Source: Candidatus Poribacteria bacterium
GTDB taxonomy: Bacteria; Poribacteria; WGA-4E; WGA-3G
Length of the DNA: 64,000 bases
Assembly: GCA_022828145.1 (NCBI GenBank)
Contig: JAJEJA010000015.1
Coordinates: 9,298-73,297, forward strand
Direction of reading: 5' to 3'
The notes under the pieces were generated by a model. That model was not told the DNA's origin. It made no database searches and saw nothing but the letters and a program-made list of their open reading frames with translations. Below, in pieces: positions 2,102-34,400 of the stretch. Positions within the stretch are counted from its first letter, which is position 1; every line of letters begins with the position of its first letter. Position numbers and translations under genes: made by a program.

Positions 2102-3073
2102 TCAATCTTCCGTATACAATGCCACCATCTCGCGTGCTGTTCGAGCAACCCATTCTCGTAATGCCTTCGGTTTAACGACTTCAGCTTCATGTCCCCAACG
2201 CAACACCCACCATCCGATTTCGTGCCAGCCAGCGACGGTTGCCTCAAAACGAAGCGTGCCATTATCCAATTCCTGCAGCTGCTGCGTCGGATGCCAATTC
2301 ACCTCCCGAATCAGCGGAGCGATACGTGGGGCAAACAGGATGACAACATGTGTGTCCGGTCCGAGCATAACATCCCAACTTTTATCAAGATATTTCTGCA
2401 CAGAGAAATCTTCAGGGATAGTATAACCCGCATGTGTCATATTAAGTGAATCAATACGGTTGATACGAAAGGTGAGAATCTGTTCGAACGTTTCAGATCG
2501 TCCAATGACATACCACGCCCGTTTGCGAAACAACACAGCATAAGGTGCAAGCCGATGGCGAACCTTCGTGCCACTGCTAAAAGAATTATACTCTATAGTG
2601 ACCCGTGTCTTTTCTCGGATTGCTTGGTATAGCATCTCTTTACACTGATCATCTTCATCAGTCGGACTAACTTGTTGTGGTGGTACTTCAATCTGTGAGA
2701 CAATTTGGTTTAAGGTATCGTTTGTCTGTTTCGGTAAACCGGAAGTAATCTTATGAATTGCACTATTCAGCATCTCAATTGATTGTTTACCCTCCGTTGC
2801 CCGATAAAAACTCGCTGCGGTAACCAGTGCAAGTGCTTCTTTAAGATCAAGGTTGAGTGGGGGCAGGAAAAACTCGGATATCATCTCGTATCCTTGTTTA
2901 CCACGTGGCACAATCATGATTTCCATATCGCGCAAAAGGTCAATATCACGCTGGATGGTCGTTTTGTTGACTTCAAAACGTTCTGCTAACCGAGGACGGG
3001 TCCATTTACAAGGTTGACTATGGATAAGACGCGCAACTTCAATGATGCGCGCCATCTGTTTTTTGCGGTACAT
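2102..3073 (-). CDS. HTH-WYL-WCX transcriptional regulator (PafB/PafC/YafY family)
   Basis: N-terminal wHTH (LAERFEVNKTTIQRDIDLL), WYL core (APYAVLFRKRAWYVIG...TFRINRI) and C-terminal WCX (WVLRWGHEAEVVKP). ATG 3073 is preferred over TTG 3085. Confidence 0.9.
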   Translation of the reverse strand: MYRKKQMARIIEVARLIHSQPCKWTRPRLAERFEVNKTTIQRDIDLLRDMEIMIVPRGKQGYEMISEFFLPPLNLDLKEALALVTAASFYRATEGKQSIEMLNSAIHKITSGLPKQTNDTLNQIVSQIEVPPQQVSPTDEDDQCKEMLYQAIREKTRVTIEYNSFSSGTKVRHRLAPYAVLFRKRAWYVIGRSETFEQILTFRINRIDSLNMTHAGYTIPEDFSVQKYLDKSWDVMLGPDTHVVILFAPRIAPLIREVNWHPTQQLQELDNGTLRFEATVAGWHEIGWWVLRWGHEAEVVKPKALREWVARTAREMVALYTED

Positions 3074-3145
3074 AATGTCTCTCAAATATAGTCATATTAA
3101 AATAGTATACACCATTTCATAAAGATGCATAAGTCCTGATTAACT

Positions 3146-5199: not shown

Positions 5200-5670
5200 T
5201 TACGAAACAGAATCAACATCTAACATAGCGCGTGGTCCATCAATATCATTTTGATCCAACATTCTACGGTATCTGCTCTCTTTTCTGATTGGTTCAGTTC
5301 TGTTTGTAGATAGCCAGTGATAACTACTACGATCCTTTAATACTTCAAGGTCTTCTGCTGAAGACTTAAGCCATTGTCTTAACCATTTAACTTTTTTGAT
5401 GATGTTTTCTACTTCACTTGTTTTGCCTTGATGAACTTCAACATAATAAATTTTGTCTTTATAACCGAAAACATAGTCCCAACGAGGTGCATTCGGATAA
5501 CGGTTTTTGAGACAGGTATCTATATCAACACTTCCTTTCAAATCACGTGTCGTGTGAGCTTTTATCTTACTGCTATTTTTGCCTAATGCTTGTAATCCAT
5601 CTTTCAAGCAGTCGCTGATTTCGGTTATACTTTGAACTGCGATGCGAAAACTCACAAATCTGCCCTCCAC
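5200..5670 (-). CDS. Hypothetical protein, possible PD-(D/E)xK-type nuclease partner of the upstream ATPase
   Basis: 156-aa basic ORF with RWDYVFG...YYVEVH, a D...ExH pattern. Overlaps the ATPase gene by 19 nt. Confidence 0.55.
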   Translation of the reverse strand: MEGRFVSFRIAVQSITEISDCLKDGLQALGKNSSKIKAHTTRDLKGSVDIDTCLKNRYPNAPRWDYVFGYKDKIYYVEVHQGKTSEVENIIKKVKWLRQWLKSSAEDLEVLKDRSSYHWLSTNRTEPIRKESRYRRMLDQNDIDGPRAMLDVDSVS

Positions 5671-6803
5671 ATAGCTTCAGAAACGACTTCAGAAACTTTA
5701 GAACTGAATGCTGTTAACCCACCAAAATCTGATACTGCTTCATCAGGATCTTCAGCATCTAACGTTGAAATATCTTTGACATGGACAATCTTGTCTTGCT
5801 GAGCAAAATAATAGGTTTTGAACGTTTTTTCTAACGCCGTTTCTGCTAAAGGTCTTGAAAAGTAATTTGGTTTCAAATCCAACACTTTCAATAGCTGTGT
5901 TGGTTCAGCACCTGCTTTAACCAGATATTGAATTGCCCACACTAATTCCAAAACTTGCGAAGAATGCGTTGACACGATGACTTTATACCCGCGTCTCATA
6001 AGTTCCAAAAAAACAGTGAGTAGTGCTGAAATTGCTTTGGAGTGTAACCCTATTTCAGGTTCCTCAATAACAACCCAATTGATGCTATTTTTTTTCTGTT
6101 CCCCACCCGAGGGCATTAATCGGTATAATCCCATCAACAGTGGCACAAATTCCCGCTGACCAGTTGACCACACCATAAATGGCAATTGGGTACCCGCAAC
6201 GTCTAAGACAATCCGTTTCCGCAAACCGGAACGATCCAATTTTACTTTAGCCCCTTTAAAAATGCTTTCTCCAATTGCATCACGTATCATTTTGTTCATA
6301 CGCCCGGTGTGCGGAAATATATCACCTTTACTAAACTCTAAACTCGTTTCTAATAATAGACGCAGATGTTCACTAAATTGCTTAACAACATAGGGGTCAC
6401 CGATAGCGTAGTCAGTAAAAGGACGGGGCCACCCGTCTTTGAGTGTCATTGCTCGGTGTGCAGGAATCAGGAGGAAGTTTTCCGCTTTTTTCCTGTCTTT
6501 TTTAGACAAAGCTTTGTCAAGTTCAAAATCCTCGTCGTCAACGACAATTTTAGTAGTATTGTCCCAAATACCGTCCATCCCTTCACCGAAATAGAGTGAT
6601 AAAAAATCATTTTTATTCTCATGCCAATCAAAACCGTGTTTTCTAAGGGTCTTCGTAATATCACCGATGTCTAAAACTAACTTTACAAGTTGGAGCAGAA
6701 TGCTCTTTCCACTCGCTTGTTCACCGACAAATACTGTTAGATCCCCGAATGTAATGTCAGCTTCTTGAATTTGTCCTAATGAAGTAACTGTAAGACGTTT
6801 CAT
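5652..6803 (-). CDS. ABC-type/AAA_15/AAA_21 ATPase (defence-associated class)
   Basis: Walker A GEQASGKS, signature-like STGQRE, Walker B IEEPEIGLH, H-loop VSTHS. No transmembrane partner. Confidence 0.85.
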   Translation of the reverse strand: MKRLTVTSLGQIQEADITFGDLTVFVGEQASGKSILLQLVKLVLDIGDITKTLRKHGFDWHENKNDFLSLYFGEGMDGIWDNTTKIVVDDEDFELDKALSKKDRKKAENFLLIPAHRAMTLKDGWPRPFTDYAIGDPYVVKQFSEHLRLLLETSLEFSKGDIFPHTGRMNKMIRDAIGESIFKGAKVKLDRSGLRKRIVLDVAGTQLPFMVWSTGQREFVPLLMGLYRLMPSGGEQKKNSINWVVIEEPEIGLHSKAISALLTVFLELMRRGYKVIVSTHSSQVLELVWAIQYLVKAGAEPTQLLKVLDLKPNYFSRPLAETALEKTFKTYYFAQQDKIVHVKDISTLDAEDPDEAVSDFGGLTAFSSKVSEVVSEAMWRADL

Positions 6804-6827
6804 GGATACCTACTCCTTTTTAGTTGA

Positions 6828-8120
6828 CTACTGACTTTGAGCATTTGCACTAAGAAAGGCTCTACCTGTTTTATTCTCGGCGCGAAAAACTGCAAGGTTA
6901 CGTCCCTTCATATCTTTAACTACCCAGTAATGTCCCACATGAGAGGTTTGACTCATAACATAGTTCGGGGCAATTTGCAAATAAAACTGTTCATTGCCTT
7001 GATAATCTACCCAATAATATGCTATGTTCTCCTCAGTACTATTCACGAAGATAATTGAAGTTTCAGTGTGATTGGGTCTTGATATTAGATTTTTGATTTG
7101 GTTTGGATCCTGTTTCTTCAAGTTAACCCACTTACCATTACCATCGCTATTCGGGTTTAATAATTGCTTATGAAGATCTGCATAAGTCGGAAAACTTGAT
7201 TGCCATTTAAATTTTGGGGACTCTGAGGGATTGAATATCTTCAGGTGTGATAGGTGGGTACGCATTTTTGCTTTTGTGTATCGCCAGTCTGTATCACCAT
7301 AGACCTCGGTTAGCAATACAGCAAGTTCAGGGTCATACTTTTTCAACTGTTCCCGAGTTTTGACATGATTATGTAGACTATCATTTCTCCAATTGGTGTT
7401 AAACCAGGATTGTGACCCTTCAGCCCAATATTCCTCTCTATTTGTTATAGCATAAGTGCCTTTCCACAATCCCTTTTTTCTTGCAGAATCATAAGCTTTC
7501 TTAAGCCGATCATCAAAACTCTGATCAACAGTGTTCAATCCGACTAAATGGATTGCATGACTAAATTCGTGAATTAGTATGTTTTCTCCCTGATAAGGGT
7601 CTCCTGGATAATTGAGCAGGTTTTCTTCACCACAACTCACGATGGAGTTTGGACGTCTTGCCCCTAAACCGCGTGCCCGTAGATCCCAATAAAAATTAGG
7701 ACGTAGGTTTCTATATTCGGGAATTTGTGTTGTCATCTGGTTGTATGCTATGACAACAAAACGCACTTCATTATGAACAAGTGCTTGCAGAATATCCTGA
7801 CGATGTTCAAGCATCTGCCTAATAAGCCAGGCTGCTTCTTTCAAAGCATAAGGACTCACATTTGCTGATGCCAAAACAGGCAATCCTTCTACATCAATCC
7901 ATTGCTGATAAAACGGATCCAGATTATACCCCTTACGGACAAAGTCTGGCGGCGGAGATGGTTCAGGAATGTCAAAGTCTCGCTTAGTTTCTGGATTTTG
8001 GGTAGGATACAAGATTGCACAACCTGATAAAAGGATGGCCACCCATAGCATCAGAGGCATCAACACGACATGCCGCAAAACACTGCGGACCTTGTTGTGA
8101 TTTATCCGCGAAGATTTCAT
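6828..8120 (-). CDS. Lipoprotein with zincin metallopeptidase domain and C-terminal VHL beta-like domain
   Basis: Lipobox LSGC; HEFSH with downstream EYWAE; C-terminal IIFVN...YWVDYQG....Y..I.P......T...H.WVV.D pattern typical of the VHL beta domain. Confidence 0.75.
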   Translation of the reverse strand: MKSSRINHNKVRSVLRHVVLMPLMLWVAILLSGCAILYPTQNPETKRDFDIPEPSPPPDFVRKGYNLDPFYQQWIDVEGLPVLASANVSPYALKEAAWLIRQMLEHRQDILQALVHNEVRFVVIAYNQMTTQIPEYRNLRPNFYWDLRARGLGARRPNSIVSCGEENLLNYPGDPYQGENILIHEFSHAIHLVGLNTVDQSFDDRLKKAYDSARKKGLWKGTYAITNREEYWAEGSQSWFNTNWRNDSLHNHVKTREQLKKYDPELAVLLTEVYGDTDWRYTKAKMRTHLSHLKIFNPSESPKFKWQSSFPTYADLHKQLLNPNSDGNGKWVNLKKQDPNQIKNLISRPNHTETSIIFVNSTEENIAYYWVDYQGNEQFYLQIAPNYVMSQTSHVGHYWVVKDMKGRNLAVFRAENKTGRAFLSANAQSQ

Positions 8121-10219: not shown

Positions 10220-11080
10220 TCACGGAAGGGTGGAAGAGTGGAAGGATGGAAGGGCGGAATGTAGATATTGTGTTGGCGTAATATTCTCTTTCGCAACCTT
10301 GTAATACTCAGGCATTATCTCAATACCGACAGAATTCCGTGATAACTTTTGAGCGACCTGACAAGTCGTCCCAGAACCGGCAAATGGGTCAAGCACCCAA
10401 TCGTTCTCTTTCGTGAACAACTTAATAAACCACTCAGGCAGCGTCTTTGGAAAAACGGCACTATGATTGCGATTACCCGTTTCTGTTGCTAAATGCAGAA
10501 CATTCGTCGGATACGCCATCTTTCTGTCTAACCAGTTTGAAACATTCTTACCAAAACCGCTCCCGACCTTTGATATATCACGGTTTTTATCAGTTTCACT
10601 GAGGTTCTTTAGTCTCTTCTTTGCCCAATCTCCCATCGGAACCATAACGGACTCTTGATACATATTGAATTTCTTGTCCTTGTTAAATTGCAAACATCTT
10701 TCCCATGCGTCTCTAAATCGGTTTGGCCATTTTCCTGGATAACTGTTTTTCTTGTGCCAGATGAACTCTTCAGTCCACAACCATCCCTGCTTTTTCATCT
10801 CAAGTATCAGCTCAATTACGTATGTATGTCGTTCCCCGTTGACAGCTTTCTCCTTAATGTTCAAAATGAATGTCCCAGACGGTTTCAGTACCCTAAGAAA
10901 CTGTTCAGCGCGGGGCATGAACCAATCCACATATTCATTCGGATTTATACCACCGTAAGTCTTGGTTCGACGGTCTGCATAAGGTGGAGATGTTACAATC
11001 AGGTCAAATGAATCTGCGTCACAATCGGAGAGAATCTCTAAACAGTCTCCAAGATAAAGGTTCGTGTCAATTGTTTCCAT
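10220..11080 (-). CDS. Site-specific DNA methyltransferase (beta class, probably N4-cytosine), orphan
   Basis: Catalytic TSPPY precedes SAM-binding DPFAGSGTT; HSAVFP motif. Confidence 0.9.
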   Translation of the reverse strand: METIDTNLYLGDCLEILSDCDADSFDLIVTSPPYADRRTKTYGGINPNEYVDWFMPRAEQFLRVLKPSGTFILNIKEKAVNGERHTYVIELILEMKKQGWLWTEEFIWHKKNSYPGKWPNRFRDAWERCLQFNKDKKFNMYQESVMVPMGDWAKKRLKNLSETDKNRDISKVGSGFGKNVSNWLDRKMAYPTNVLHLATETGNRNHSAVFPKTLPEWFIKLFTKENDWVLDPFAGSGTTCQVAQKLSRNSVGIEIMPEYYKVAKENITPTQYLHSALPSFHSSTLP

Positions 11081-11283
11081 CAAACGATTTTACCTTTGTA
11101 TATCTTACTGAAAATGACATAAAAACGTTCACAAAATGTTTTCAGATCATCACTTGTAAGTGATAGAGATATAGTATCATATTTACGCCAAGTATTCAAT
11201 TCTAATTGACCTAATATTCAGGATATGATACGATTTTGAAAACGAATAAATGAATAGACCCAGTCATCAAAGGAGAACGAACA

Positions 11284-12549: not shown

Positions 12550-13572
12550 ATGTCAAAAGATTCAAGTACTCAAGAACCGGAAAAACTTAGTTTTTCCGAT
12601 ATCCCGATTAAACATTTTCCTGACCGAAGCACGCGCTGGTTGTTCGAAGACAAAGAGTACGTCCGGGACTTGGTAGAAATCGTTGCGAGTGAACTAGCGG
12701 TGCGTATTGATTTTAGACGTCTTTCACAGATAGATAGGACTTTTATCCCTGACACTTTACGCGCGCACCAGTCTGATGTAGTGTTTACCGCGCCGTTTCA
12801 GACTGAATCGGGAACAGATGAACTGCTAATTTATATTCTTATTGAACATCAGTCCACGGTTGACCCGATAATGGGGTTCCGGGTCCTGTTTTACATGATG
12901 CAGATTTGGGATACCCAACGTAGAGAATGGGAGGCAAATAAAGTTCCCAAAAGTCAGTGGCGTTTCCGTCCGATCATTCCAATAGTATATTATACGGGCG
13001 AAGATCGGTGGAGCAACCCACTTACACTTGAGGCAATAATGGATATTCCCGATGTGCTTGCGCGGTTTGTTCCAAAATATGATACGCTGTTTCTCAGTGT
13101 GAATGAGACGGAGGCAGCAGACCTAAAGGAAACTGACCTTCCATTAGGATGGTTGTTAACAGTTCTTCAACAGAAAAATGCTGATATTGAAACGATAAGC
13201 ACTACTCTGCTTGAGGCGGTGCCGCACGTTAAGCATCTACATAAGGCGATCACCTATTTGGTTCTGTTTATCTTACATCAGCGACCTGCTGCAGAACACA
13301 AAGACTTGATACGACTTGTTGAACAACAGGCACAAGATATGGAGGTAGAAAACATGGCACAATCAATCATTGAAATTTCCAAAGAGGAAGGTATAGAAGA
13401 AGGCAGAGAAGAAACAAAACGAGAGGTTATTATCAAGCTGCTGGAAATAAAGTTTGATAATGTCCCCGAATCCATTATCAATAAAATTAACGGCATACAG
13501 AGTCTTTCACGTCTTAATTCACTCTTTGAGAAAGCCGCAACCATTGAAACACTTGATGATTTTGAGGCATAA
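12550..13572 (+). CDS. Rpn/YhgA-like (transposase_31, PD-(D/E)xK) family protein
   Basis: SDVVF...LIYILIEHQS...MGFRVLFYM...PIIPIVYYTG..W, plus a C-terminal EEGIEEGREE helical tail. Confidence 0.9.
   Translation: MSKDSSTQEPEKLSFSDIPIKHFPDRSTRWLFEDKEYVRDLVEIVASELAVRIDFRRLSQIDRTFIPDTLRAHQSDVVFTAPFQTESGTDELLIYILIEHQSTVDPIMGFRVLFYMMQIWDTQRREWEANKVPKSQWRFRPIIPIVYYTGEDRWSNPLTLEAIMDIPDVLARFVPKYDTLFLSVNETEAADLKETDLPLGWLLTVLQQKNADIETISTTLLEAVPHVKHLHKAITYLVLFILHQRPAAEHKDLIRLVEQQAQDMEVENMAQSIIEISKEEGIEEGREETKREVIIKLLEIKFDNVPESIINKINGIQSLSRLNSLFEKAATIETLDDFEA
13354..13572 (+). CDS. Putative intragenic small protein (RpnS-like antitoxin, 72 aa) nested in-frame in Rpn
   Basis: GGAGGT at 13341-13346 lies 7 nt before in-frame ATG 13354 (MAQSIIEISKEEG...). 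Confidence 0.55.
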   Translation: MAQSIIEISKEEGIEEGREETKREVIIKLLEIKFDNVPESIINKINGIQSLSRLNSLFEKAATIETLDDFEA

Positions 13573-13765: not shown

Positions 13766-15058
13766 ATGGCACAAACACCGAACATTGTACTTATTCTCGC
13801 TGACGATCACGGCTATGGCGATATTTCCGCACACAACGGTCCCTCAATACAAACACCAAACATTGATAGAATCGCTTCAGAAGGCACAAGATTTACACAA
13901 TTCTACGCCAATTCCTCTGTCTGTTCTCCGAGTCGCGCATCGCTTATGACTGGACGGTACCCCGATAGAGTCGGTGTTCCCGGTGTCATTCGTACCCATG
14001 CACACAACAACTGGGGATATTTTCACCAAGACGCGATCACACTACCTTCAATGCTAAAACAGAGAGATTATCGCACATCACTCATCGGTAAATGGCACTT
14101 GGGACTTGAGGATGAAAACCATCCCTGCAAACGAGGTTTTGACCACTTTCACGGCTTCCTCGGCGATATGATGGATGACTATTACACACATCTGCGACAT
14201 CAAAATAACTATATGCGACACGGATTTGATACGATTGATCCAAGAGGACACGCGACCGACCTCTTCACAGATTGGAGCGTGGATTTTATTCGGACGCATG
14301 CACACACATCCCATCCTTTCTTTCTCTATCTTGCATATAACGCACCGCATACACCGATTCAACCCCCCGAAGACTGGATTGCACGCGTGATGGAACGGGA
14401 TCCGGATATTTCTCCGCAACGCGCAAAATATATCGCACTCGTTGAGCACATGGACCACGGTATAGGACGCGTGCTGGATACACTCAAAGAAACAGACCAA
14501 CTCTCTAACACGCTCGTGATTTATACATCTGATAACGGTGGGGCAATGCAAGTCGGCGCACATAACGGTCCACTACGCGGGCAGAAAGGTGAGATGTACG
14601 AAGGGGGCATACGCGTGCCTACTTGTGCTATGTGGGAAGGACACATCCCCCAAGGACATGTTACGGATCAGGTGGCAATGCTGATGGATATTTACCCAAC
14701 GCTATGCGATATTGCTGATATACCCATCAATCACGAAATTGAGGGACACTCAATTTGGAATACGTTACAAGGTGAGAAACAAGACCTTTCTGAACGACTT
14801 ATTTACTGGCTACGTAGAGAAGGAGGAAACCAGTGGATCGGAGAATGCCAACACGCTGTCCGTCGCGGCGATATAAAACTATTGCACAATAGACCTTTTC
14901 AACCCTTGGAACTTTATGATCTTTCCAGCGATTCTTTAGAGGCAACTGATATTTCGCAGACAAACAAGAAAGCCTATACAGAGATGAGCCGTTCATTGCA
15001 GGAAGAGATACAACAGGCGGGTAGTGTGCCGTGGCAAAAAGGAAATACAGATGGGTAA
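13766..15058 (+). CDS. Formylglycine-dependent (Cys-type) sulfatase
   Basis: PNIVLILADD, CSPSRASLMTG, GKWHLG, YTSDNG. Confidence 0.95.
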   Translation: MAQTPNIVLILADDHGYGDISAHNGPSIQTPNIDRIASEGTRFTQFYANSSVCSPSRASLMTGRYPDRVGVPGVIRTHAHNNWGYFHQDAITLPSMLKQRDYRTSLIGKWHLGLEDENHPCKRGFDHFHGFLGDMMDDYYTHLRHQNNYMRHGFDTIDPRGHATDLFTDWSVDFIRTHAHTSHPFFLYLAYNAPHTPIQPPEDWIARVMERDPDISPQRAKYIALVEHMDHGIGRVLDTLKETDQLSNTLVIYTSDNGGAMQVGAHNGPLRGQKGEMYEGGIRVPTCAMWEGHIPQGHVTDQVAMLMDIYPTLCDIADIPINHEIEGHSIWNTLQGEKQDLSERLIYWLRREGGNQWIGECQHAVRRGDIKLLHNRPFQPLELYDLSSDSLEATDISQTNKKAYTEMSRSLQEEIQQAGSVPWQKGNTDG

Positions 15059-16646
15059 AGTTATCGGAATTGATTTTGGCACAACATTTTCTGTTATCGC
15101 GCACGTCAATGAGCACGGTCAACCTGAGATTATCCCCAATTTAGAAAGTGAACGCATCACCCCATCGGTCATCCTGTTTGAGGACAACCTTGTGACAGTC
15201 GGTAAAATTGCCAAGCAGAGTGCAAGGGCGGTTCCTGAACAAATTGTAGAATTTGTCAAACGTGAGATGGGTAAATCTAAAGCAGAGTTCTTTCGTGCAT
15301 TCAATCAAAAGGAGTATTCCCCTGAGGAACTCTCCGCCCTTGTCTTGAGGAAGCTCAAACAGGATGCTGAAACCTATCTGAATGAAGAGGTTACTGATGC
15401 GGTTATCACTGTGCCTGCTTATTTTCACGATGCTGAACGCGAAGCCACACGCAACGCAGGTAAAATCGCTGGACTCAATGTGCTACATGTCATGAATGAA
15501 CCGACTGCAGCAGCACTCGCTTACGGTATAGACCAGTTAGGTAGCAACCAGAATGTGTTCGTTTTTGACCTTGGTGGTGGAACATTTGATGGAACGATAA
15601 TGCGGGTGTCAGACTCTGAAATACAGATGCTCGCAACGAACGGGGACCATAGACTCGGCGGTAAGGATTGGGACGATAAAATCATCACACACGTTGCTGA
15701 GATGTTTGAAATTGAACACGGAGAAAATCCTTTAGAAGACCTACACACATATCAAGACCTGCAATTGGATGCGATCGGTGCAAAAGAATCTCTGTCATTG
15801 CGACAGCGGGCGTTAATCGTTTGCGGCTATAATGGAAAGACAACTCGCGTGGAACTGGAGCGGGGGAAATTTGAGGAACTCACAACCGACCTCCTTGAAA
15901 GATGTCGCACTTTATGTGAAGTTGTCCTATCGGAAGCGGAAATGACATGGGAAAACATTGACAAGATACTACTGGTCGGCGGTTCTACGCGTATGCCTAT
16001 GGTGCAAAATATGATCGCTTCAATTAGTGGAAAGGAGATAAATCCTCATGAAGTCAATCCCGATGAGGTCGTCGCAATAGGCGCAGCAATTCAGGGAACA
16101 CTCCGCCAAATATCCGAAGGCAACACCGAGACAGAAGATATGCCGGAAGCAGTCATTGAACGGTTCATTGGACCGGACGGTGCACCGAAGGTGACCGTCA
16201 CGGATGGGGCGACACATAACCTTGGACTCGTCGTCCTAAATGCACTACGCGAGTATATCATACACGTTATGATCCCAAAAATGACACCTGTTCCGTGCGA
16301 AATATCTGATAGATTCCTAACGGTAGACCATAATCAACCATCCGTACTGATTGAGGTTGTGCAAGGACTTGAACAGGACCAACCAAGAGACACAATTGAG
16401 TTTTTTGAGGAATACAAATTGGGTGAATGTACTTTGGAACTCCCACCCGGTCTGCCGCAAGGTTCTCCAATTGAGGTGAACTATAGCTACAACATAGACC
16501 AGAACCTTGAGGTGACAGCAAAATCACTCAACGACGATTCGCCTACTGCTGTATACGATATTTTCTCAATTATCGACAGACCCACTCTCAATGAAGAAGA
16601 GGTTGCACAAGCGCAAACCGATCTACGAGACCTTGTCGTTGAATAG
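15051..16646 (+). CDS. Hsp70-family protein (specialised DnaK paralog, lid truncated)
   Basis: GIDFGTT, VITVPAYF, NEPTAAALAYG, DLGGGTFD, LVGGSTRMP; 531 aa. ATG 15051 overlaps the sulfatase gene by 8 nt. Confidence 0.92.
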   Translation: MGKVIGIDFGTTFSVIAHVNEHGQPEIIPNLESERITPSVILFEDNLVTVGKIAKQSARAVPEQIVEFVKREMGKSKAEFFRAFNQKEYSPEELSALVLRKLKQDAETYLNEEVTDAVITVPAYFHDAEREATRNAGKIAGLNVLHVMNEPTAAALAYGIDQLGSNQNVFVFDLGGGTFDGTIMRVSDSEIQMLATNGDHRLGGKDWDDKIITHVAEMFEIEHGENPLEDLHTYQDLQLDAIGAKESLSLRQRALIVCGYNGKTTRVELERGKFEELTTDLLERCRTLCEVVLSEAEMTWENIDKILLVGGSTRMPMVQNMIASISGKEINPHEVNPDEVVAIGAAIQGTLRQISEGNTETEDMPEAVIERFIGPDGAPKVTVTDGATHNLGLVVLNALREYIIHVMIPKMTPVPCEISDRFLTVDHNQPSVLIEVVQGLEQDQPRDTIEFFEEYKLGECTLELPPGLPQGSPIEVNYSYNIDQNLEVTAKSLNDDSPTAVYDIFSIIDRPTLNEEEVAQAQTDLRDLVVE

Positions 16647-16696
16647 TGTATATTGGATTTATTTTCCAGTACTACTGCTGAAAAACGGGTAAACGG

Positions 16697-18037
16697 ATGT
16701 CAAAACGTGACGAATTCATTACTATTATCACAGCATTCAGAGCAGCGTCTGCAACTATTTCAGATGAACAACGCAAAGGTCTGCTACGTCAAGCAGTACA
16801 CAACTACGGACTCTCTGTTGAGGAAGCAACAGAAATCCTACAGTTTTTGGGATTAGTCGTTGGTAGAGAGATAGACTATTTTGATGTGTTAGGTATCTCA
16901 GTTGATGCAATACATGGCTTAGATGAAACCACAATCGTGGGGCGTGTTGAAACGGCACACAAGAAACTTTACCGAGAGTCTTTGAACGCTGGTGGACGAC
17001 CACGTCCAGACGGTCGAACTGAAAACGAATGGCGAACACTTCTAAACCAAGCAAGAGATACACTCATAGATGCAGAAAAACGAAACGCACATATCGCATC
17101 GCTGAAGGATGATATACCGCTTGATACTGAAACTTTTTCAAGAGAAGTATCAACAACACCAGAACAGACACCTTCGCTCCCAACGGACTCTATTTCTGAT
17201 GAAGAACTCTCTCCTACAGAACCAACCCCGAACCTCCCTTTAGAAAAGGATGGTATGGTACTCATTCCTGCCGGCAATTTTCAGATGGGTAGTGAAGAGT
17301 TTATAGCGTATAACAACGAAGATCCGATACATACTGTATATCTTGATGCCTTTTATATGGACAAATACCCGGTGACAAATGAAGAATATAAGGAATTTAT
17401 TGATGCAAATCCACAATGGCATAAACCTCAAAAGTGGTACGAGCGAAGTAGACCAAGTGAAGCTATTCTTAAACAATATCACGATGGGGATTACTTGCAC
17501 GATTGGAAGTGGGAAGATTATCCACCTGGAAAAGTAGACCATCCAGTAACTTGGGTTAGTTGGTATGCTGCCCTGGCATACTCACAGTGGAAAGGTAAGC
17601 GGTTGCCGACTGAAGCTGAATGGGAGAAAGCTGCACGTGGTGGATTAGTGGGGAAAAAGTATCCGTGGGGAAATACTTTAGATATGGAATTTCTTGATAA
17701 AGTTCTAAATCTCAATAAGACAACACCCGTTGGTTCATATCCAGCAAATGACTACGGATTGTATGATGTCATAGGGAATGTGTTTGAGTGGTGTCTTGAT
17801 AGGTGGGATCAAGATTTCTATAAGAACTCACCACAGCAGAATCCTCTTTCAGGTGGCAATATTTCTGATTTAATCAACAATTATAAAAACATTAAGGAAA
17901 CGCGTGTACTAAGAGGGGGTTCTTGGCCCAAAAATGAACGGGTTGCAGCTCGTTTTAGCTGTTCTCCTCAGTATACATCCTACAACATCGGGTTTCGCTG
18001 TGTTAAACCTGTTTCAATAGACGATTATGAGAAGTAG
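16697..18037 (+). CDS. Degenerate J-domain + FGE-sulfatase (SUMF1/EgtB-like) domain protein, paralog 1
   Basis: N-terminal DYFDVLG...AHKKLYR...RPDG...LNQARDTLIDAEKRNAH. C-terminal F.MGS, RLPTEAEWEKAARGG, GLYD..GNV.EW, RGGSW, GFRC. Confidence 0.85.
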   Translation: MSKRDEFITIITAFRAASATISDEQRKGLLRQAVHNYGLSVEEATEILQFLGLVVGREIDYFDVLGISVDAIHGLDETTIVGRVETAHKKLYRESLNAGGRPRPDGRTENEWRTLLNQARDTLIDAEKRNAHIASLKDDIPLDTETFSREVSTTPEQTPSLPTDSISDEELSPTEPTPNLPLEKDGMVLIPAGNFQMGSEEFIAYNNEDPIHTVYLDAFYMDKYPVTNEEYKEFIDANPQWHKPQKWYERSRPSEAILKQYHDGDYLHDWKWEDYPPGKVDHPVTWVSWYAALAYSQWKGKRLPTEAEWEKAARGGLVGKKYPWGNTLDMEFLDKVLNLNKTTPVGSYPANDYGLYDVIGNVFEWCLDRWDQDFYKNSPQQNPLSGGNISDLINNYKNIKETRVLRGGSWPKNERVAARFSCSPQYTSYNIGFRCVKPVSIDDYEK

Positions 18038-19373
18038 ATTATTGAATTCTAAACACCAGGACTTTTTAGCTTTCATCAATGCGTTTAAAGCAGTTTCACC
18101 AACTATTTCTGAGGCGCAACGCAAAGGGCTCCTCCGAAGAGGTATAGAGGAACACGGTCTCTCTGTTGATGAAGCTGTTGAAATACTTGACACATCAGGG
18201 TTAGTCATCGGAGAACAGGTCAATTACTTAGAAGTGTTAGGTCTGTCAATCTCAGACATTGAAAATCAGAGTGAAGATGAAATAGCACATAAGATCAATG
18301 CGGCACACAAAGAACGTTATCGTACTTCGCTAAATGCTGGAGGTCGTCCGCGTGCTGATGGTAAAACAGAGGAACAGTGGCGAATACTCCTAAACCAAGC
18401 ACACGAAGTCTTGATTGATTCTAAGAGGAGAGATGAACATATTGCAATTCTTCAATACGAAGTCGCAGAACAGTATTCAGCTATTGACGAAACGTCTTCA
18501 CAAGAATTAACTGACGATGACAAAACTATTCATGAAATATCAGATGTTGACAGGACATCGCTTCAGCAAACAACCCATCAGACTGTTCCGCTTGATATAG
18601 ATGTACCTCAGGACATGGTTTACATTCCCGCAGGTGAATTCCTGATGGGAAGTGATGTAAAGGAAGCAAAGAAATCTGAGAAACCTGTGCATAATGTCTA
18701 CACAGATGCATTCTTTATGGACAGATACTTGGTAACAAATGCACAGTTCAAAGCGTTCATTGATGCTAACCCACAGTGGCGTAAACCGCAGCCGTCAACA
18801 GATCATATAGATGAAAGATACCATGATGGGGCTTACTTGGAACATTGGCATCAAGATAATTATCCGAGAGGAAAAGATGAACATCCGGTCACAAAAGTGA
18901 GTTGGTATGCTGCTACAGCGTATGCACAGTGGATTGGTAAACGCTTGCCAACAGAAGCAGAGTGGGAGAAAGCCGCTCGGGGTGGGTTGGAAAGAATGAA
19001 ATATCCCTGGGGGAACGCAATTGATACGACAAAGGCTAACTATCTATTCCATAACGGCAGTACAACTCCAGTCGGTCAATATCCTCCAAATAGATATGGA
19101 CTATATGACATGTGTGGGAATGTTTGGGAATGGTGTCTTGATGCGTATCACGCGAGATTCTATGTAAAGTCACCATCACATAATCCATTTTCTGATAGTA
19201 TTAGTATGGAAAACGTAATATATTATTTTAGAGAAATCAATACACCTCGTGTATTACGGGGTGGTGCGTGGGGAGTTGAGCCTCAGCGTGTAAGGGTTGC
19301 ATCTCGGCTAAAGGGGCAACCAGAATACACGATTCAGACCTTCGGTTTTCGTTGCGTAATGGATATTGATTAG
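18027..19373 (+). CDS. Degenerate J-domain + FGE-sulfatase domain protein, paralog 2
   Basis: Same architecture (NYLEVLG..RADG..; RLPTEAEWEKAARGG). Overlaps paralog 1 by 11 nt. Confidence 0.85.
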   Translation: MRSRLLNSKHQDFLAFINAFKAVSPTISEAQRKGLLRRGIEEHGLSVDEAVEILDTSGLVIGEQVNYLEVLGLSISDIENQSEDEIAHKINAAHKERYRTSLNAGGRPRADGKTEEQWRILLNQAHEVLIDSKRRDEHIAILQYEVAEQYSAIDETSSQELTDDDKTIHEISDVDRTSLQQTTHQTVPLDIDVPQDMVYIPAGEFLMGSDVKEAKKSEKPVHNVYTDAFFMDRYLVTNAQFKAFIDANPQWRKPQPSTDHIDERYHDGAYLEHWHQDNYPRGKDEHPVTKVSWYAATAYAQWIGKRLPTEAEWEKAARGGLERMKYPWGNAIDTTKANYLFHNGSTTPVGQYPPNRYGLYDMCGNVWEWCLDAYHARFYVKSPSHNPFSDSISMENVIYYFREINTPRVLRGGAWGVEPQRVRVASRLKGQPEYTIQTFGFRCVMDID

Positions 19374-19400
19374 CGCAGTACAGATTAGGATAAGACTGAT

Positions 19401-20660
19401 ATGAATAAACACGATACGTATAAAACCCTAATTCAGGAATTTAAAGCAGTATCTCCATCCATCACCGAGGCGCAACGCAAAGGGATCCTCCGAAGAGGTA
19501 TAGAGGAACACGGTCTCTCTGTTGATGAAGCTGTTGAATTACTTGACACATCAGGGTTAGTCATCGGAGAACAGGTCAATTACTTTGAAGTGTTAGGTCT
19601 ATCAATCTCAGACATTGAAAATCAGAGTGAGGATGAAATTAAGCATCACATCAATGCGGCACACAAAGAACGTTATCGTACTTCGCTAAGTGCTGGAGGT
19701 CGTCCGCGTGCTGATGGTAAAACAGAGGAACAGTGGCGAATGCTCCTCAATCAAGCACACGAAATCTTGCTTGATCCGAAGAGAAGAGAGGAACATATTG
19801 CATTTCTTCAAAACGAAGTCGCAGAACAGTATTCCGATATTGAGAGGACATCGTTTCAACAAACAACACATCAGACTGTTTCACATGATGTGCCTGATGA
19901 TATGGTTTACATTCCTGCAGGTGAATTCCTGATGGGGAGTGATGAAAAGGAGGCAGATAACTCTGAAAAACCTGTGCATAGTGTCTACACAGATGCATTC
20001 TTTATGGACAGATACTTGGTAACAAATGCACAATTCAAGGATTTCATTGATGCTAACCCAAAGTGGCAAGTTCCCAGGTGGTTAAGAAATACACTTTTTC
20101 TGAAATATTGTGATCAGGATTATTTGAAAGACTGGTATACAAGCAACTATCCAAACGGGAAAGCCAACCATCCGGTAAAATGGGTGAGTTGGTATGCAGC
20201 AATGGCTTATGCACAATGGGTGGGTAAACGTCTACCAACAGAGGCGGAATGGGAGAAAGCTGCCCGCTGCGGCGTGTCAGGACAAAAATATCCATGGGGT
20301 AATACGATTCATGTGAGCAGCGCAAACTACGATAAACATGTAGGTGAAACAACACCTATAGATGCATATCCTCCAAACAAAAACGGTCTATACGATATGG
20401 TGGGGAACGTCGCTGAATGGTGCCTTGATGAATGGGATAGCGAATTCTATGTGTCTTCACAAAGTCGTAATCCTATTGCAGGTGGTAGTATAAGTGACAT
20501 CATAGAAAACCTGAGAAAAACAAGAAAGTCGCGGGTGATACGGGGTGGTTCATGGTACTCTTCAGCGTATGAAGTGAGCATGTCATCGAGAGACAGATTA
20601 GAACCTTGGAAAACAGCCAGTACCACCGGATTCCGTTGTGTGAAACCTATTGAATCTTAA
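19401..20660 (+). CDS. Degenerate J-domain + FGE-sulfatase domain protein, paralog 3
   Basis: Same architecture; 5' half nearly identical in DNA to paralog 2. Confidence 0.85.
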   Translation: MNKHDTYKTLIQEFKAVSPSITEAQRKGILRRGIEEHGLSVDEAVELLDTSGLVIGEQVNYFEVLGLSISDIENQSEDEIKHHINAAHKERYRTSLSAGGRPRADGKTEEQWRMLLNQAHEILLDPKRREEHIAFLQNEVAEQYSDIERTSFQQTTHQTVSHDVPDDMVYIPAGEFLMGSDEKEADNSEKPVHSVYTDAFFMDRYLVTNAQFKDFIDANPKWQVPRWLRNTLFLKYCDQDYLKDWYTSNYPNGKANHPVKWVSWYAAMAYAQWVGKRLPTEAEWEKAARCGVSGQKYPWGNTIHVSSANYDKHVGETTPIDAYPPNKNGLYDMVGNVAEWCLDEWDSEFYVSSQSRNPIAGGSISDIIENLRKTRKSRVIRGGSWYSSAYEVSMSSRDRLEPWKTASTTGFRCVKPIES

Positions 20661-20714
20661 CGCCTTATTTTGATATAATTTTATAATAAGTCGAATTTAA
20701 GAAGAGATTAAACT

Positions 20715-22106
20715 ATGCAAGATCGAGAATCATATATTGACTTCATCAATGCATTTACGACGGTCTCTCCAACGATTTCTGACGAACAACACAAAAGGCT
20801 TCTCAATAGAGCGGTGCAATATCACGGTCTTTCTATTGATGAAGCAGTTGAAATCCTCAATGCTGCGGGATTAAGAATTGGTGAAACGGAGAACTATTTT
20901 GAGATACTGGGATTCTCCATAGAGGATTTTCAGAACCGTGATAAATTAGAAATTAAGGAACTTGTTGAAGCATCACACAATCAACTTTATCGTACTTCGC
21001 TAAATGCCGGAGGTCGTCCGCGTGCTGATGGTAAAACAGAAGAACAGTGGCGAATGCTCCTCAATCAAGCAAGAGATACACTTATTGATCCACAGAAACG
21101 CGAAGCACATATTAACATGCTTGGAGATGCTGTATTACCTGTTACCGAACCTGTTCCCCATGAGGAGCTTTCCACCTCAAATCCAATAGATTCAGAACTT
21201 ACCGATTTACCTTCTGAGGAGGAAGTTGCGGACCCAGAACCAACAGTTTCGCAACGCATAGAAAAAATCTCTGATGAACAGTTTCCTATACCAGAGTCTA
21301 CCCTGCATCTTCCATCAGAACAGGACGGTATGGTACTGATTCCAGCAAGTGCTTTTGACATGGGCAGCAATGATATTGAGGCGAACAGTGATGAGAAACC
21401 TGTCCATACTGTCTACGTCGATTCATTTTATATGGATAAACATCCAGTGACAAATGCAGAATATAAAGCGTTTATTGATGTGAATCCACATTGGCGAAAA
21501 CCGAATAAATGGTTTGAACGATACAATAATCAAACCGCTACTATTGATGATAGCCATCATGATGGGGACTATTTGAGACATTGGAAAGCGAATATATATC
21601 AATATGGGGATGCGGACCATCCAGTTACTTGGGTGAGTTGGTATGCTGCAATGGCTTATGCGCAATGGGTGGGTAAACGTCTACCGACAGAAGCAGAATG
21701 GGAAAAAGCTGCCCGCGGCGGGTTAACTGCTCAGAAATATCCTTGGGGACAATCAAGTGATATTAGCAGAGCCAACTACAACTTAATTGCAAATAAGACA
21801 ACTGCTGTAAATACATATCCACCCAATGAATTCGGATTATATGATATGGTAGGAAATGTCAGAGAATGGTGTCTTGACAAATGGGACAAAGGATTCTATC
21901 AAATATCTCCAAACATTAATCCGATCACAGATGGTACTATCAATGAAGTCATGGAACAATTTGAGAGCATACGCACATCCCGCGTCTTACGTGGTGGTTC
22001 TTGGGTAAGCATTCCTAAGAACGCTCGGATTGCATATCGATCGGGAAGTCTACCTTATTATACATGCATGAACATCGGATTCCGTTGTGTTAGATCTGCC
22101 GAATAA
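20715..22106 (+). CDS. Degenerate J-domain + FGE-sulfatase domain protein, paralog 4
   Basis: Same architecture with a long acidic Pro-rich linker. Confidence 0.85.
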   Translation: MQDRESYIDFINAFTTVSPTISDEQHKRLLNRAVQYHGLSIDEAVEILNAAGLRIGETENYFEILGFSIEDFQNRDKLEIKELVEASHNQLYRTSLNAGGRPRADGKTEEQWRMLLNQARDTLIDPQKREAHINMLGDAVLPVTEPVPHEELSTSNPIDSELTDLPSEEEVADPEPTVSQRIEKISDEQFPIPESTLHLPSEQDGMVLIPASAFDMGSNDIEANSDEKPVHTVYVDSFYMDKHPVTNAEYKAFIDVNPHWRKPNKWFERYNNQTATIDDSHHDGDYLRHWKANIYQYGDADHPVTWVSWYAAMAYAQWVGKRLPTEAEWEKAARGGLTAQKYPWGQSSDISRANYNLIANKTTAVNTYPPNEFGLYDMVGNVREWCLDKWDKGFYQISPNINPITDGTINEVMEQFESIRTSRVLRGGSWVSIPKNARIAYRSGSLPYYTCMNIGFRCVRSAE

Positions 22107-31493: not shown

Positions 31494-34400
31494 ATGGCAA
31501 ACAGCGAAAATACAATTACCAGCGCCTTTGTAAACGTGCTACGTCCGATGAGAGATGCATGGCGTGTTAACGAACAAATTACAAGACCTTTCCTAAATGC
31601 GACAACGAAACCTGATGTAATTGTCACCGAAACAGGACGAAACCCAATCGTCATTGAAGTGAAAATTGACGGTAACACTCCAAATCTTACCGGAATGACA
31701 CAGGCAACAGCACATTTTGGAATGATGCTTGATCCCAACGTTTTCTCCGGTCTTACCTATGATACCGTTGAGAATGTCCTACGAGTCCGCATGCCTGTCC
31801 GATTCAAAACGATGCCACAAGGAAACATTGACGCAGAAATGCGAACTGCTGAAGATATTGCTTACATGCTTATCAACAGACCAAAACCTGAAAACGAAGC
31901 AGAACCTGATTCAGATCTATTCATCTATGAAGCGAAAGAAACAGAACAGGATAACGAAGCAGAACCTGAACGTTTTCCAAAAAAAGGATGGTTAAAAGGT
32001 AGTGTAGCCGACATCGCAACCGCTATTCGTGTTGGAGCAACCCCTATCTCTAAAATTAATGCCGCAGCGAATCTGTTAGAAGCACGGATAGAGATTGCCG
32101 CGCAGCAGCTTGAGGAAGCAATTTCAGAACGCCCTGGTATCGGCGAAGAAATTGAGGGGATTCTCTTTCAAAAATCTGGTGAACAAACTTCTCGGATGGC
32201 AATGCTAATTATTACCAACGCCTTTGTGTTTCAGAGCGCACTTGCCGGTAAATCCGAAATGAAAGATGTTCTATCCCTTAAACGGATGCTGTCCAACAAT
32301 GCAAAACGGCTCCGTTATGACCAAGTCCTTGCAGGATGGAACGTTATTCTCAACGTAAACTATCGTCCGATTTTCTATGTTGCGAAACGACTCATTGAAG
32401 CAATCGCAACCGATGACGAACTGGTTGATAGAGTGTTAGGGACGCTTTGTCGTGCAGCAAAGGAATTAGTTGACCAACGACTCACGCAGGTCCACGAACT
32501 CGCTGGCACTGTTTTTCAACGACTTATTGTTGACAGAAAGTATGTTAAAGCAAACTATACGCGCCTTGAATCCGTTTCCTTATTGTCTGCTCTGGTACTG
32601 CCGAAGACACAAGAGAACGTAAGCGAATTGAAGGTCGCTGATTTTGCTTGTGGGACAGGTTCACTGCTCAACGGTACATACCAACGCATCCTTGAACTTC
32701 ACGAACAAGCTGGCGGAAAAGGCAGCCGCATTCACACAAAGATGGTAGAGAATAATCTTGTTGGATGTGATATTATGCCAAATGCAAGCCACTTAACCGC
32801 TTCTCTCTTGACAAGTACCTACCCTGACCTGAAAATCGGTAACACCCGAATCTATACAATGCCTTACGGAAGACAAATAGATGGAATTTACGCCCTCGGT
32901 GCACTCGATCTATTTGATGAACCTGAAGCAACGATACCCCTTCCAATGATGGGTACTGAGATTCAACAAATCGGTGGAGAAGACGACATGACTGTGGTAA
33001 CAGAACACGAGTTTCAACATAATGAATTTGATATTGTTGTCCTAAATCCTCCGTTTACCAGACCCGACTCCGATCCGAACACCAGTATACCGAAAGCCGT
33101 ATTCAAAGGAAGTAACAGAACCAAAGAAGATGAACAGAATATGCGAAAAGCACGCAAGCGAAAAAAGTGGCGAGTCGGTAACGGCAATGCTGGACTCCCT
33201 TCTGACTTTGTTGATCTTGCAGACAAGATGTTGAAAGAAAATGAGAAAAGCAAAATGGGATTCATCTTGCCTGTGACTTGTCTTATGTCTCCACACTGGC
33301 AGAAAGTGCGTGATATGTGGGCGACCGAATATCACGACGTGGTTGTTCTTACCATCGCGGATGCAGAGGGTGAAAATTGCGCGTTTTCCGCAGATACTAC
33401 CATGGCAGAATGCATGGTAATAGCAACAAAGGGTAAGAAAGTTAACAATACAGGACGCGGTACGTTTATGTCCTTGAATCGTCGTCCTCAAAGCGTGTTA
33501 GAAGCAATTGTAGTAGCAAATTCTATCCAAATGCATGATAGTGTTCGTCGGTTAGAAGATGAACCGAGTGGGGGTGATATGCTTAAAGTTGGTGATGATT
33601 TAATCGGACATGTACTCAATTGTCCGTTAAAGACCGACAGCGCGTGGCAGGCCGTTCGAATTAAGGAGATGGCGTTAATCCAATCCGCACACCGTTTGTC
33701 GCTTGGGGAAATGTGGTTACCTACACAAGCTAAACCCTTAAAAATTCAAATGTGTAGTGTAGGTGATATTGCAGGAGTAAGCGCGCATCATCGGGACATT
33801 CATGAAAAAGGACCGCGGGGTGCGTTTGATGTAGAAAAAAGTTACACTGATACTGACTTATATCCAGGATTGTGGCACCTTAATGCCCCAGCACAACGGG
33901 CAATGTTGGTAAAACCAGATTGTCATCTTACACCTCGTCCCAACCGTCACGAAAAAGCGCGAGCTATCCTCGTGTGTAATGGACGTGTTCATTTTAATGT
34001 TATCATGGGTTTTAATGCCAATTCTCTCGGAGTTCTTTTTACGGAAAAACCTACACTCGGTATAAGTTCCTTACCCAACGTTGTTTTTGAAAAACCGATT
34101 TACGATTATGTTTGGACACTCTGGGGTAATTCAACTTTAGGACTATTACTACATTAGGCTCACAGCAGTAAACAACAACCAGGTAGAGGAGCAAGTTCAA
34201 GAACCTTCTTACTCCAAATGCCTACGCTTGATGTGCGGTGTCTATCAGATAAAGCATTGGCAAATGCTGAACGTATTTTCCACGACTTGAAACATCAGCG
34301 TATGTTCCCTTTCAATGAGTCAGATCATGACCCAGTCCGTCACGAACTTGACCTTCGTTTGCTCAACGAAGTGCTGGACATCACAAGTGAAGATGCACAT

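Follow-up and report, generated by a model that had tools for sequence, protein, structure and literature searches.

The bacterial Hsp70s of the textbook are of three types, DnaK, HscA, and HscC, each of which works with J-domains that bear HPD or HPE, and the parts of Mayer 2021 (PMC8215388) used here also set out how a canonical J-domain engages its partner: D35 of the HPD motif bonds R167 and Q378 of the Hsp70, and H33 bonds the linker backbone. Escherichia coli HscC is a specialized, non-housekeeping Hsp70 with dedicated, variant-motif J-proteins beside it, DjlB and DjlC, in whose sequences HPE was read; the locus described here follows the same plan. It lies in a 64,000-nt window, the whole stretch of DNA that was analyzed, from contig JAJEJA010000015.1 of assembly GCA_022828145.1 (Candidatus Poribacteria bacterium), where positions 13,766-22,106 hold the genes for a sulfatase, an atypical Hsp70, and four paralogous proteins, here called adaptors, each with an N-terminal J-like module, a linker, and an FGE-like domain. 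An earlier note on this DNA had reported the sulfatase, an Hsp70 gene overlapping it by 8 nt, and four co-oriented paralogs, with which the open reading frame (ORF) coordinates and Pfam matches agree. We think it probable that the locus encodes a self-contained, lineage-specific Poribacteria Hsp70 machine, consisting of a lid-less Hsp70, a GrpE-like exchange factor (lost here), and an array of J-like targeting adaptors.

The N-terminal module was modeled with AlphaFold2 from adaptor residues 1-150, using 98 aligned family members, and reached a pLDDT of 87.3. The model begins with a three-helix bundle (helices at residues 3-17, 23-37, and 41-50), which is followed by J-like helices at 61-65, 77-98, 109-124, and 126-139, and by a loop at 99-108 (GGRPRPDGRT) in their midst. 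The top rows of a Foldseek search against the PDB were almost all J-domains, at a probability of ~1.0 and a TM of 0.5-0.73 normalized on targets of ~70 residues. VIA-align, which is independent of Foldseek, gave Z 6.7-8.9 for model residues 58-140, and 12 of its 16 best rows were titled J-domain, HscB, ERdj5, CSP, or RAC. By hhalign, the genome's own four canonical J-domains matched the module with a probability of 61% and E 8e-5, J positions 1-62 falling on residues 60-132, and Pfam Pam16 gave a weak match to paralog 4 (E 0.027). The scores are moderate, but we accept a predicted four-helix J fold, with its hairpin of helix II, loop, and helix III, for the module. HPD is absent between helices II and III in all seven module copies of this genome; the loop (paralog 1, GGRPRPDG; paralogs 2-4, GGRPRADG) exceeds that of DnaJ by five residues, and P-R-x-D-G is invariant across the seven copies. 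The earlier note had read a J-domain pattern in which these sequences replace HPD and had proposed a structural comparison of residues ~55-135 with J-domains, and the matches above bear out both the fold and the missing motif. Across 83 adaptors, residues 91-120, which take in the last part of helix II, the loop, and helix III, are the most conserved part of the module, as is expected of a working Hsp70 interface.

The preceding segment, residues 1-56, had been called TerB-like. Folded only as part of residues 1-150, it matched generic three-helix bundles only (VIA-align Z 5-6); the 50 rows listed did not include TerB, and that label was dropped; many family members start directly with the J-like domain and lack these residues altogether.

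The Hsp70 is 40% identical to E. coli DnaK, and alignments to DnaK, HscA, and HscC show that the ATPase motifs GIDxGTT, K70, E171, and DLGGGTFD are conserved. It failed the NCBIfam equivalog cut-offs for DnaK (NF001413, 423 vs. 648 bits) and HscA (TIGR01991, 326 vs. 708 bits), and the same genome also codes for a full DnaK of its own and for four to five J-proteins of canonical type. An insert of ~26 residues follows AIQGT, between the equivalent of DnaK Q378 and the linker; the linker reads KVTVTD, as against the canonical VLLLD; and the protein ends ~18 residues past LNEEEV of the beta substrate-binding domain, with a 12-residue stub as its lid. In the AlphaFold2 model (pLDDT 78.8), this stub is a single 12-residue terminal helix. 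The insert, the altered linker, and the truncated lid had all been recognized in the earlier note. The position of DnaK R167 is occupied by H in the window Hsp70 and by Q in 16 other aligned family members, whereas the arginine is kept by E. coli DnaK, HscA, and HscC and by the genome's own DnaK. From the loss of HPD on one side, and the R167 replacement and the insert between Q378 and the linker on the other, we infer that the J-like partner and the Hsp70 have both been altered exactly at the canonical interface position. A complex prediction for the Hsp70 and the N-terminal module scored 0.10/0.06 against a mark of 0.32 and was counted neither for nor against the pairing. One metagenome protein of 536 aa (P0157) joins an Hsp70 ATPase domain to an N-terminal module lacking PRxDG and is either a fusion or a gene-calling artefact.

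Each of the four paralogs matched PF03781 FGE-sulfatase at E 1e-62 to 1e-68, and solved FGEs in the PDB matched these domains at E 1e-36. The cysteine-bearing loop is shortened, RGGSW-PKNE-RVAAR in the paralogs vs. RGGSYLCHDSYCNRYRVAAR in the solved FGE 2q17, and the catalytic (copper-binding) Cys pair after RGGS is absent in all four paralogs and in all 23 FGE-domain ORFs of the genome. As in the earlier description, an acidic linker is followed by an FGE domain without either catalytic cysteine, and because these cysteines are missing, the FGE-like domains of the adaptors are read as probable binding folds, not enzymes. The stretches that vary across the 83 adaptors are surface loops of the FGE fold, the former active-site loop included, and TvpA (2y3c) matched the adaptor FGE domain by sequence at E 9e-12. 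A role as target of a diversity-generating retroelement (DGR) was considered and rejected, the window's contig (C7) being without a reverse transcriptase; RVT_1 was found only on contigs C6 and C32 of the genome, and no template-repeat search was made.

When 1.84 billion representative proteins were scanned with HMMER, only 137 clusters had the module, and the named sources of these were all Candidatus Poribacteria; for 10 divergent representatives, cluster look-ups yielded no names. A scan of genome contigs with one narrow pattern yielded 72 loci, titled Candidatus or uncultured Poribacteria or "uncultured bacterium". So far as named sources go, the module thus appears lineage-specific, i.e., restricted to Poribacteria. 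Within the phylum it occurs in 61/176 genomes, nearly all from one family (59/112, or 58/111 besides the window's genome). In this family, each of the 59 genomes with the module encodes the atypical Hsp70 as well (identity of 65% or more; one is partial), and 52 of the 53 family genomes without the module have only a DnaK-level match (~45% identity); these co-occurrence counts are descriptive only, as relatives are not independent.

Twenty loci, one per genome and spanning 74-96% Hsp70 identity, were fetched, and their ORFs were labeled by phmmer. Genes for the N-terminal module lie directly 3' of Hsp70 in 20/20, with one to eight such genes within the fetched stretch; the adaptors of these arrays mostly carry an FGE-like domain at the C-terminus, and seven ORFs in six loci end in WD40. 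Among 80 representative family proteins, the module is fused to FGE in 21, ankyrin repeats (Ank) in 11, WD40 in three, PG-binding in three, and HEAT in two, and forms with TPR, PEGA, or multiple transmembrane (TM) segments also exist. The predicted J fold, the occurrence of module and Hsp70 in the same 59 genomes, the adjacency in all 20 loci, and the placing of the module on other binding domains support the private Hsp70 circuit with J-like adaptors that the earlier note had proposed. In a 352-aa protein encoded elsewhere in the genome (contig C12; L018 ~1438-2496, + strand), an FGE-sulfatase domain is joined directly to a J-domain of the canonical HPD kind, so that the HPD-less family exists side by side with classical J/FGS fusions.

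In 14/20 loci, a GrpE-like gene (PF01025, E 4e-11 for a paralogous copy) lies directly upstream of Hsp70, which, with the Hsp70 and the J-like adaptors, makes up a full Hsp70/J-like/exchange-factor triad. In relatives, the sulfatase ends ...PWQKG* and the GrpE-like protein ends ...KGGNTDG*, its gene overlapping the Hsp70 ATG, whereas in the window and in its close relative L051 the sulfatase ends ...PWQKGNTDG* and so carries the GrpE-like C-terminus. Sponge metatranscriptome contigs (two runs of one study, from relatives 90-95% alike) cover the locus and have 646 extra letters exactly at 15043/15044, which fits a deletion in the window; these are assembled contigs, from which neither transcription nor a single transcript is provable. 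Judging by the termini, the GrpE-like gene was deleted here, and the 8-nt overlap of the Hsp70 start with the sulfatase stop (15051-15058) is the scar, because the sulfatase inherited the last codons and the overlap of the deleted gene. The gene content of the earlier note is confirmed and its private circuit supported, but the GrpE-like partner, the R167 change, and the array turnover discussed below had all been missed. In another genus, a stand-alone ankyrin-repeat protein of ~300 aa occupies the GrpE-like position (L064, L065, and L067, three of four such loci scanned).

The probable Hsp70 machine could work as follows. An adaptor would consist of the three-helix bundle and J-fold domain, a flexible linker, and a binding domain (a dead FGE/C-lectin fold here; WD40, ankyrin, HEAT, or TPR in relatives). 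The binding domain would capture a particular protein or glycoconjugate, upon which the J-like domain would dock on the private Hsp70 at the remodeled site between nucleotide-binding domain (NBD) and linker (H/Q for R167 and the 26-aa insert); docking would set off ATP hydrolysis, the Hsp70 would clamp the captured target, and the GrpE-like protein would reset the cycle. This scheme starts from the observed gene content, the predicted J-like fold, the missing motifs, the linkage, the co-occurrence, and a difference in evolutionary rate; the binding, the stimulation of the ATPase, and the kind of targets are its suppositions.

A number of observations weigh against such a machine. The Foldseek E-values for J-domain matches were only 0.07-1.5, above 0.05, and a VIA-align Z of 8-9 is only moderate for helical folds. 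The best Pfam DnaJ (PF00226) match reached 15.8 bits against a cut-off of 27.8 (E 0.015), covering helices III and IV in one of the four paralogs (paralog 3), and PDB sequences searched with a profile of the N-module alignment yielded no J-domain, the single match being FosB at chance level (E 1.1). Sequence aligners set R-E/T-S (residues 93-95) opposite HPD, whereas the model has 93-95 in helix II and R-P/A-D in the loop. J-like domains without HPD, e.g., Pam16/Tim16, usually do not stimulate Hsp70. The exchange factor is evidently dispensable, as its gene was deleted in the window and L051 and replaced by that for the ankyrin protein in one genus. Synteny with the sulfatase is kept in 16/20 loci, and a contig from a relative's RNA library bridges the sulfatase, the 646-nt GrpE-like stretch, and Hsp70. 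Two N-module/FGE genes on contig C122 of the genome lie away from any Hsp70, beside a GH95 gene; this pair looks like a split array, because GH95 flanks the array (downstream) in other genera. The adaptors are under overall purifying selection (dN/dS 0.16-0.25). Finally, with no effector in the window locus and no PADLOC match, a role in biological conflict is a conjecture.

Among the alternatives, one that we consider unlikely takes the J-like domain to be catalytically silent, as in Pam16, a scaffold tethering sensors to the Hsp70 as a nucleotide-dependent switch or sensor in immune-type signaling, with effectors encoded elsewhere. The missing HPD suits such a domain, but the conservation of the loop above all other parts of the module fits a working interface, and the dedicated GrpE-like factor and intact ATPase motifs argue for a chaperone cycle that turns. 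One such effector would be the caspase-PEGA-FGE protein of a second atypical-Hsp70 locus of this genome (contig C103; Table 1), which joins GrpE-like, Hsp70, and J-like/TM/FGE proteins with this protein and large WD40 proteins; no effector genes were found in the window locus or, with the queries used, in the 20 fetched loci. The relevant parts of PMC12642450 report that DnaK-like domains devoid of a lid occur in fusion with protease-effector defense modules, and passages of PMC8195603 propose FGS domains as intracellular invader sensors. In addition, the neighborhood takes a defense-island flavor from three genes that lie 3-11 kb upstream of the Hsp70 locus and encode a PADLOC candidate defense ATPase, a WYL regulator, and a methylase. 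PADLOC-DB 2.0 (2023 library, E <= 1e-3) had no match for the Hsp70, adaptor 1, the sulfatase, or the GrpE-like, caspase-FGE, and 1018-aa J-like proteins; the large WD40 protein of the C103 locus alone was matched, by a HEAT-ARM model. The C103-type Hsp70 of six relatives (G087, G094, G096, G112, G120, and G129) has another Hsp70 gene 1.5-3 kb away; this third form is ~48-52% identical, its ORFs measure ~600-710 aa, and the arrangement suggests two-Hsp70 loci.

The arrays and the Hsp70 evolve at different tempos. Across the 20 genomes, Hsp70 orthologs share 74-96% identity. In 18/20 other genomes, the best match to each window adaptor was 47-63% (17 genomes) or none (the most distant loci), which is no better than paralogs inside one array; paralogs 2-4 of the window are 49-55% identical to paralog 1. 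The exceptions are the two closest genomes, in which paralogs 1-4 find matches of 91, 65, 88, and 52% (L051) and 74, 70, 56, and 68% (L052). Relative to the closest fetched genome, dN/dS was 0.06-0.07 for Hsp70, the sulfatase, and both flanking genes, and 0.19 and 0.25 (3 to 5 times the Hsp70 value) for the two adaptors with orthologs there; the other two window adaptors have none (best 65% and 52%). Within paralog 1, the N-terminal module gave 0.06, the FGS domain 0.19, and the linker 0.56. All gene- and domain-wide values were below 0.6 (the highest being that of the linker) and at that level give no sign of positive selection; judged from these comparisons, the pattern is most simply gene turnover plus relaxed constraint. 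Two coiled-coil-like ORFs, having an N-terminal hydrophobic segment and no family match, and two DDE transposases were seen inside the arrays of relatives.

Turnover bears on the alternative that the adaptors deliver the cell's own proteins (eukaryote-like repeat or envelope proteins) to the Hsp70 for folding or assembly, without any role in conflict. Such housekeeping specialization would be analogous to HscA/HscB and HscC/DjlB-DjlC, as these are treated in sections of PMC8215388, and purifying selection on the adaptors, the persistence of some orthologs (paralog 1 in L051 and L052), and the existence of membrane-embedded family members are all in keeping with it. However, the system is missing from 53/112 family genomes, including 6/39 same-genus relatives, and is hence dispensable; copy number runs from one to eight or more, two of the four paralogs are without an ortholog in the closest fetched genome, and transposases and foreign ORFs lie inside arrays. 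We therefore judge housekeeping specialization quite unlikely. Because close relatives share a constant Hsp70 but not the same set of adaptors, a single housekeeping client is less likely as the target than variable or foreign proteins, of phage or host; the kinds of binding domain, the caspase and WD40 proteins at the sister locus, and the nearby candidate defense gene, WYL regulator, and methylase lean the same way, and surveillance of foreign proteins is possibly the role of the adaptors. A bolder version, which we put forward tentatively and with some doubt, is chaperone-based recognition: a strain-variable, germline-encoded repertoire of adaptors (FGS, WD40, and ankyrin), each binding a different phage or host protein, would feed one insulated Hsp70 via a re-invented J interface made of the PRxDG loop, the H/Q for R167, and the linker insert, and the Hsp70 would unfold, hold, or disassemble the invader component or pass it to caspase-type effectors of the sister locus. 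If this were true, sponge symbionts would have a system resembling innate immunity, with an Hsp70 of a fourth bacterial class as its executive arm.

The earlier note had coupled the Hsp70 to the sulfatase and had suggested sulfatase maturation as one possible role. In such a scheme, Cys-less FGE-like domains would bind the unfolded CxPxR segment of the adjacent sulfatase or of others, and the J-like domain would recruit the Hsp70 to prevent their folding before formylglycine has been formed. Peptides of unfolded sulfatases are bound by true FGEs, and although the genome contains 48 homologs of sulfatases, the catalytic Cys pair is absent from every one of its 23 FGE-domain ORFs. The conserved upstream position and the bridging RNA-library contig also speak for a link; the neighborhood survey that the note had suggested thus upheld synteny in most loci, but the sulfatase is absent from 4/20 and from the second Hsp70 locus. 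Moreover, a GrpE-like gene intervenes in relatives, and the tight overlap is a scar inherited from GrpE-like/Hsp70; the coupling as a designed feature is not supported. A radical-SAM sulfatase maturase on contig C17 (527.7 bits vs. a curated cut-off of 349) makes a maturation role unlikely, as do WD40 adaptors in the same arrays and the Ank, HEAT, and TPR forms in the family; array content shifts between genomes while the sulfatase stays 90-96% identical, and the UxuA, GH95, and GFO flanks suggest plain synteny within a carbohydrate-use region. A maturation or holdase role is accordingly most improbable, and the sulfatase is probably a syntenic bystander and not a functional part of the system, which corrects a tempting false lead linking it to the FGE-like domains.

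The features are listed in Table 1. No export- or membrane-type hydrophobic segment was found in any of the six window proteins (sulfatase, Hsp70, and four adaptors). UxuA-like and Rpn/YhgA-type genes flank the locus upstream and a GFO/IDH/MocA oxidoreductase gene downstream; the Rpn/YhgA-type (Transposase_31) gene, at 12550-13572 (+) between the UxuA-like gene and the sulfatase, has other ORFs in its place in relatives. The PADLOC candidate, PDC-M56A on the - strand, is full-length (E 7e-154) and adjoins a 430-aa ORF without a family match, and at 31494-34157 (+) an 887-aa ORF had no Pfam match at E 1e-8.

Table 1. Features of the Hsp70 locus, its surroundings, and related loci (window positions unless another locus is named)
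Feature	Position	Strand	Remarks
WYL/WCX regulator	2102-3085	-	upstream neighborhood
PDC-M56A-type ATPase	5652-8120	-	upstream neighborhood
Type II DNA methylase	10220-11083	-	upstream neighborhood
Cys-type sulfatase	13766-15058	+	PF00884 E 2.4e-65; CSPSR motif; predicted cytoplasmic; syntenic neighbor
Deletion scar at sulfatase 3' end (...KG-NTDG-stop)	15040-15058	+	relict 3' end of lost GrpE-like gene
Atypical Hsp70, 531 aa	15051 (ATG)-16646	+	PF00012 E 9e-121
Adaptor paralog 1, 446 aa	16697-18037	+	bundle 1-56; predicted J-fold 57-140; acidic/Pro-rich linker 141-183; Cys-less FGE/C-lectin 184-446
Adaptor paralog 2, 448 aa	18027-19373	+	architecture as paralog 1; loop GGRPRADG; 11-nt overlap with paralog 1
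Adaptor paralog 3, 419 aa	19401-20660	+	architecture as paralog 1; short linker
Adaptor paralog 4, 463 aa	20715-22106	+	architecture as paralog 1; longest linker of the four
Inserted ORF in array of relative	L051 12040-13965	+	
Inserted ORF in array of relative	L062 4181-5335	+	
Inserted ORF in array of relative	L062 7014-8306	-	
Second atypical-Hsp70 locus, contig C103	L009 4278-16729	-	all genes on one strand
C103 WD40 protein, 1138 aa			
C103 caspase-PEGA-FGE protein, 634 aa			signal anchor
C103 GrpE-like protein, 290 aa			
C103 second atypical Hsp70			70% identical to window Hsp70
C103 1018-aa protein			J-like domain at very N-terminus; ~seven TM segments; C-terminal FGE
C103 WD40 protein, 382 aa			

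The earlier note knew of no description of this architecture, and our full-text literature searches likewise found none for an Hsp70/J-like/FGE combination, although supplementary tables of published surveys might list J/FGE architectures. The system departs from the textbook in being a clade-restricted fourth Hsp70 that has lost the motif-reading arginine, with a partner lacking H and P and with arrays of exchangeable binding domains. If the J-like module drives the Hsp70, it would offer a natural, rewired, and insulated J/Hsp70 interface, useful for understanding chaperone specificity and for orthogonal chaperone engineering; if the adaptors recognize foreign proteins, a chaperone-centered logic would be added to prokaryotic immunity or symbiosis.

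Individual components have counterparts in several described systems. In the FGS conflict systems and DGR variable proteins, as far as the passages drawn upon from Kaur, Burroughs, Iyer, and Aravind (2020, 2021; PMC7159879, PMC8195603) describe them, an inert FGE/C-lectin fold likewise serves as a variable binding module, and it is accompanied by WD40, caspase, and repeat domains, as here. Those systems, on the same accounts, have STAND, MoxR-vWA, or GTPase cores, in many cases together with a reverse transcriptase, and show HSP70, GrpE, and DnaJ only alongside GAP1-N2 GTPases and FNIII proteins, whereas here the Hsp70 is the sole NTPase core. The EACC1-protease defense modules (PMC12642450, bioRxiv 2025.11.14.688446) also have a DnaK-like protein without lid helices and a presumed defense context; in the portions of those reports that concern them, however, it is fused to a protease-effector pair, and here a stand-alone Hsp70 is accompanied by J-like adaptors, with no protease in the locus.

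Like the DnaK-DnaJ-GrpE triad, the Poribacteria system has an ATPase with all nucleotide-binding motifs, a partner with a predicted J fold, and, among relatives, translational coupling of Hsp70 to a gene of the GrpE family; unlike it, the window Hsp70 is lid-less and has R167 replaced by H/Q, and the partner is without HPD. Pam16/Tim16 shares a J fold without HPD, and the Tim14-Tim16 structure 2guz was among the matches (Z 6.1), but in the present module the loop is longer and conserved above all other parts, the partner Hsp70 is changed at contact positions, and no HPD-bearing partner J-protein stands alongside. HscC, 32% identical to DnaK in the alignment, retains R167, is without the pre-linker insert, and extends further in its C-terminal helical region, and the window Hsp70 differs in all three respects; DjlB and DjlC are membrane proteins with a tail anchor and retain H-P, whereas the window adaptors have neither H-P nor a membrane segment. 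Nor does the HscC system include an exchange factor gene, a multi-gene array, or swappable binding domains. By analogy, the best-supported account of the Poribacteria system would nevertheless be a logic like that of HscC/DjlB-DjlC or of the specialized J-proteins of eukaryotes, with the interface rewired.

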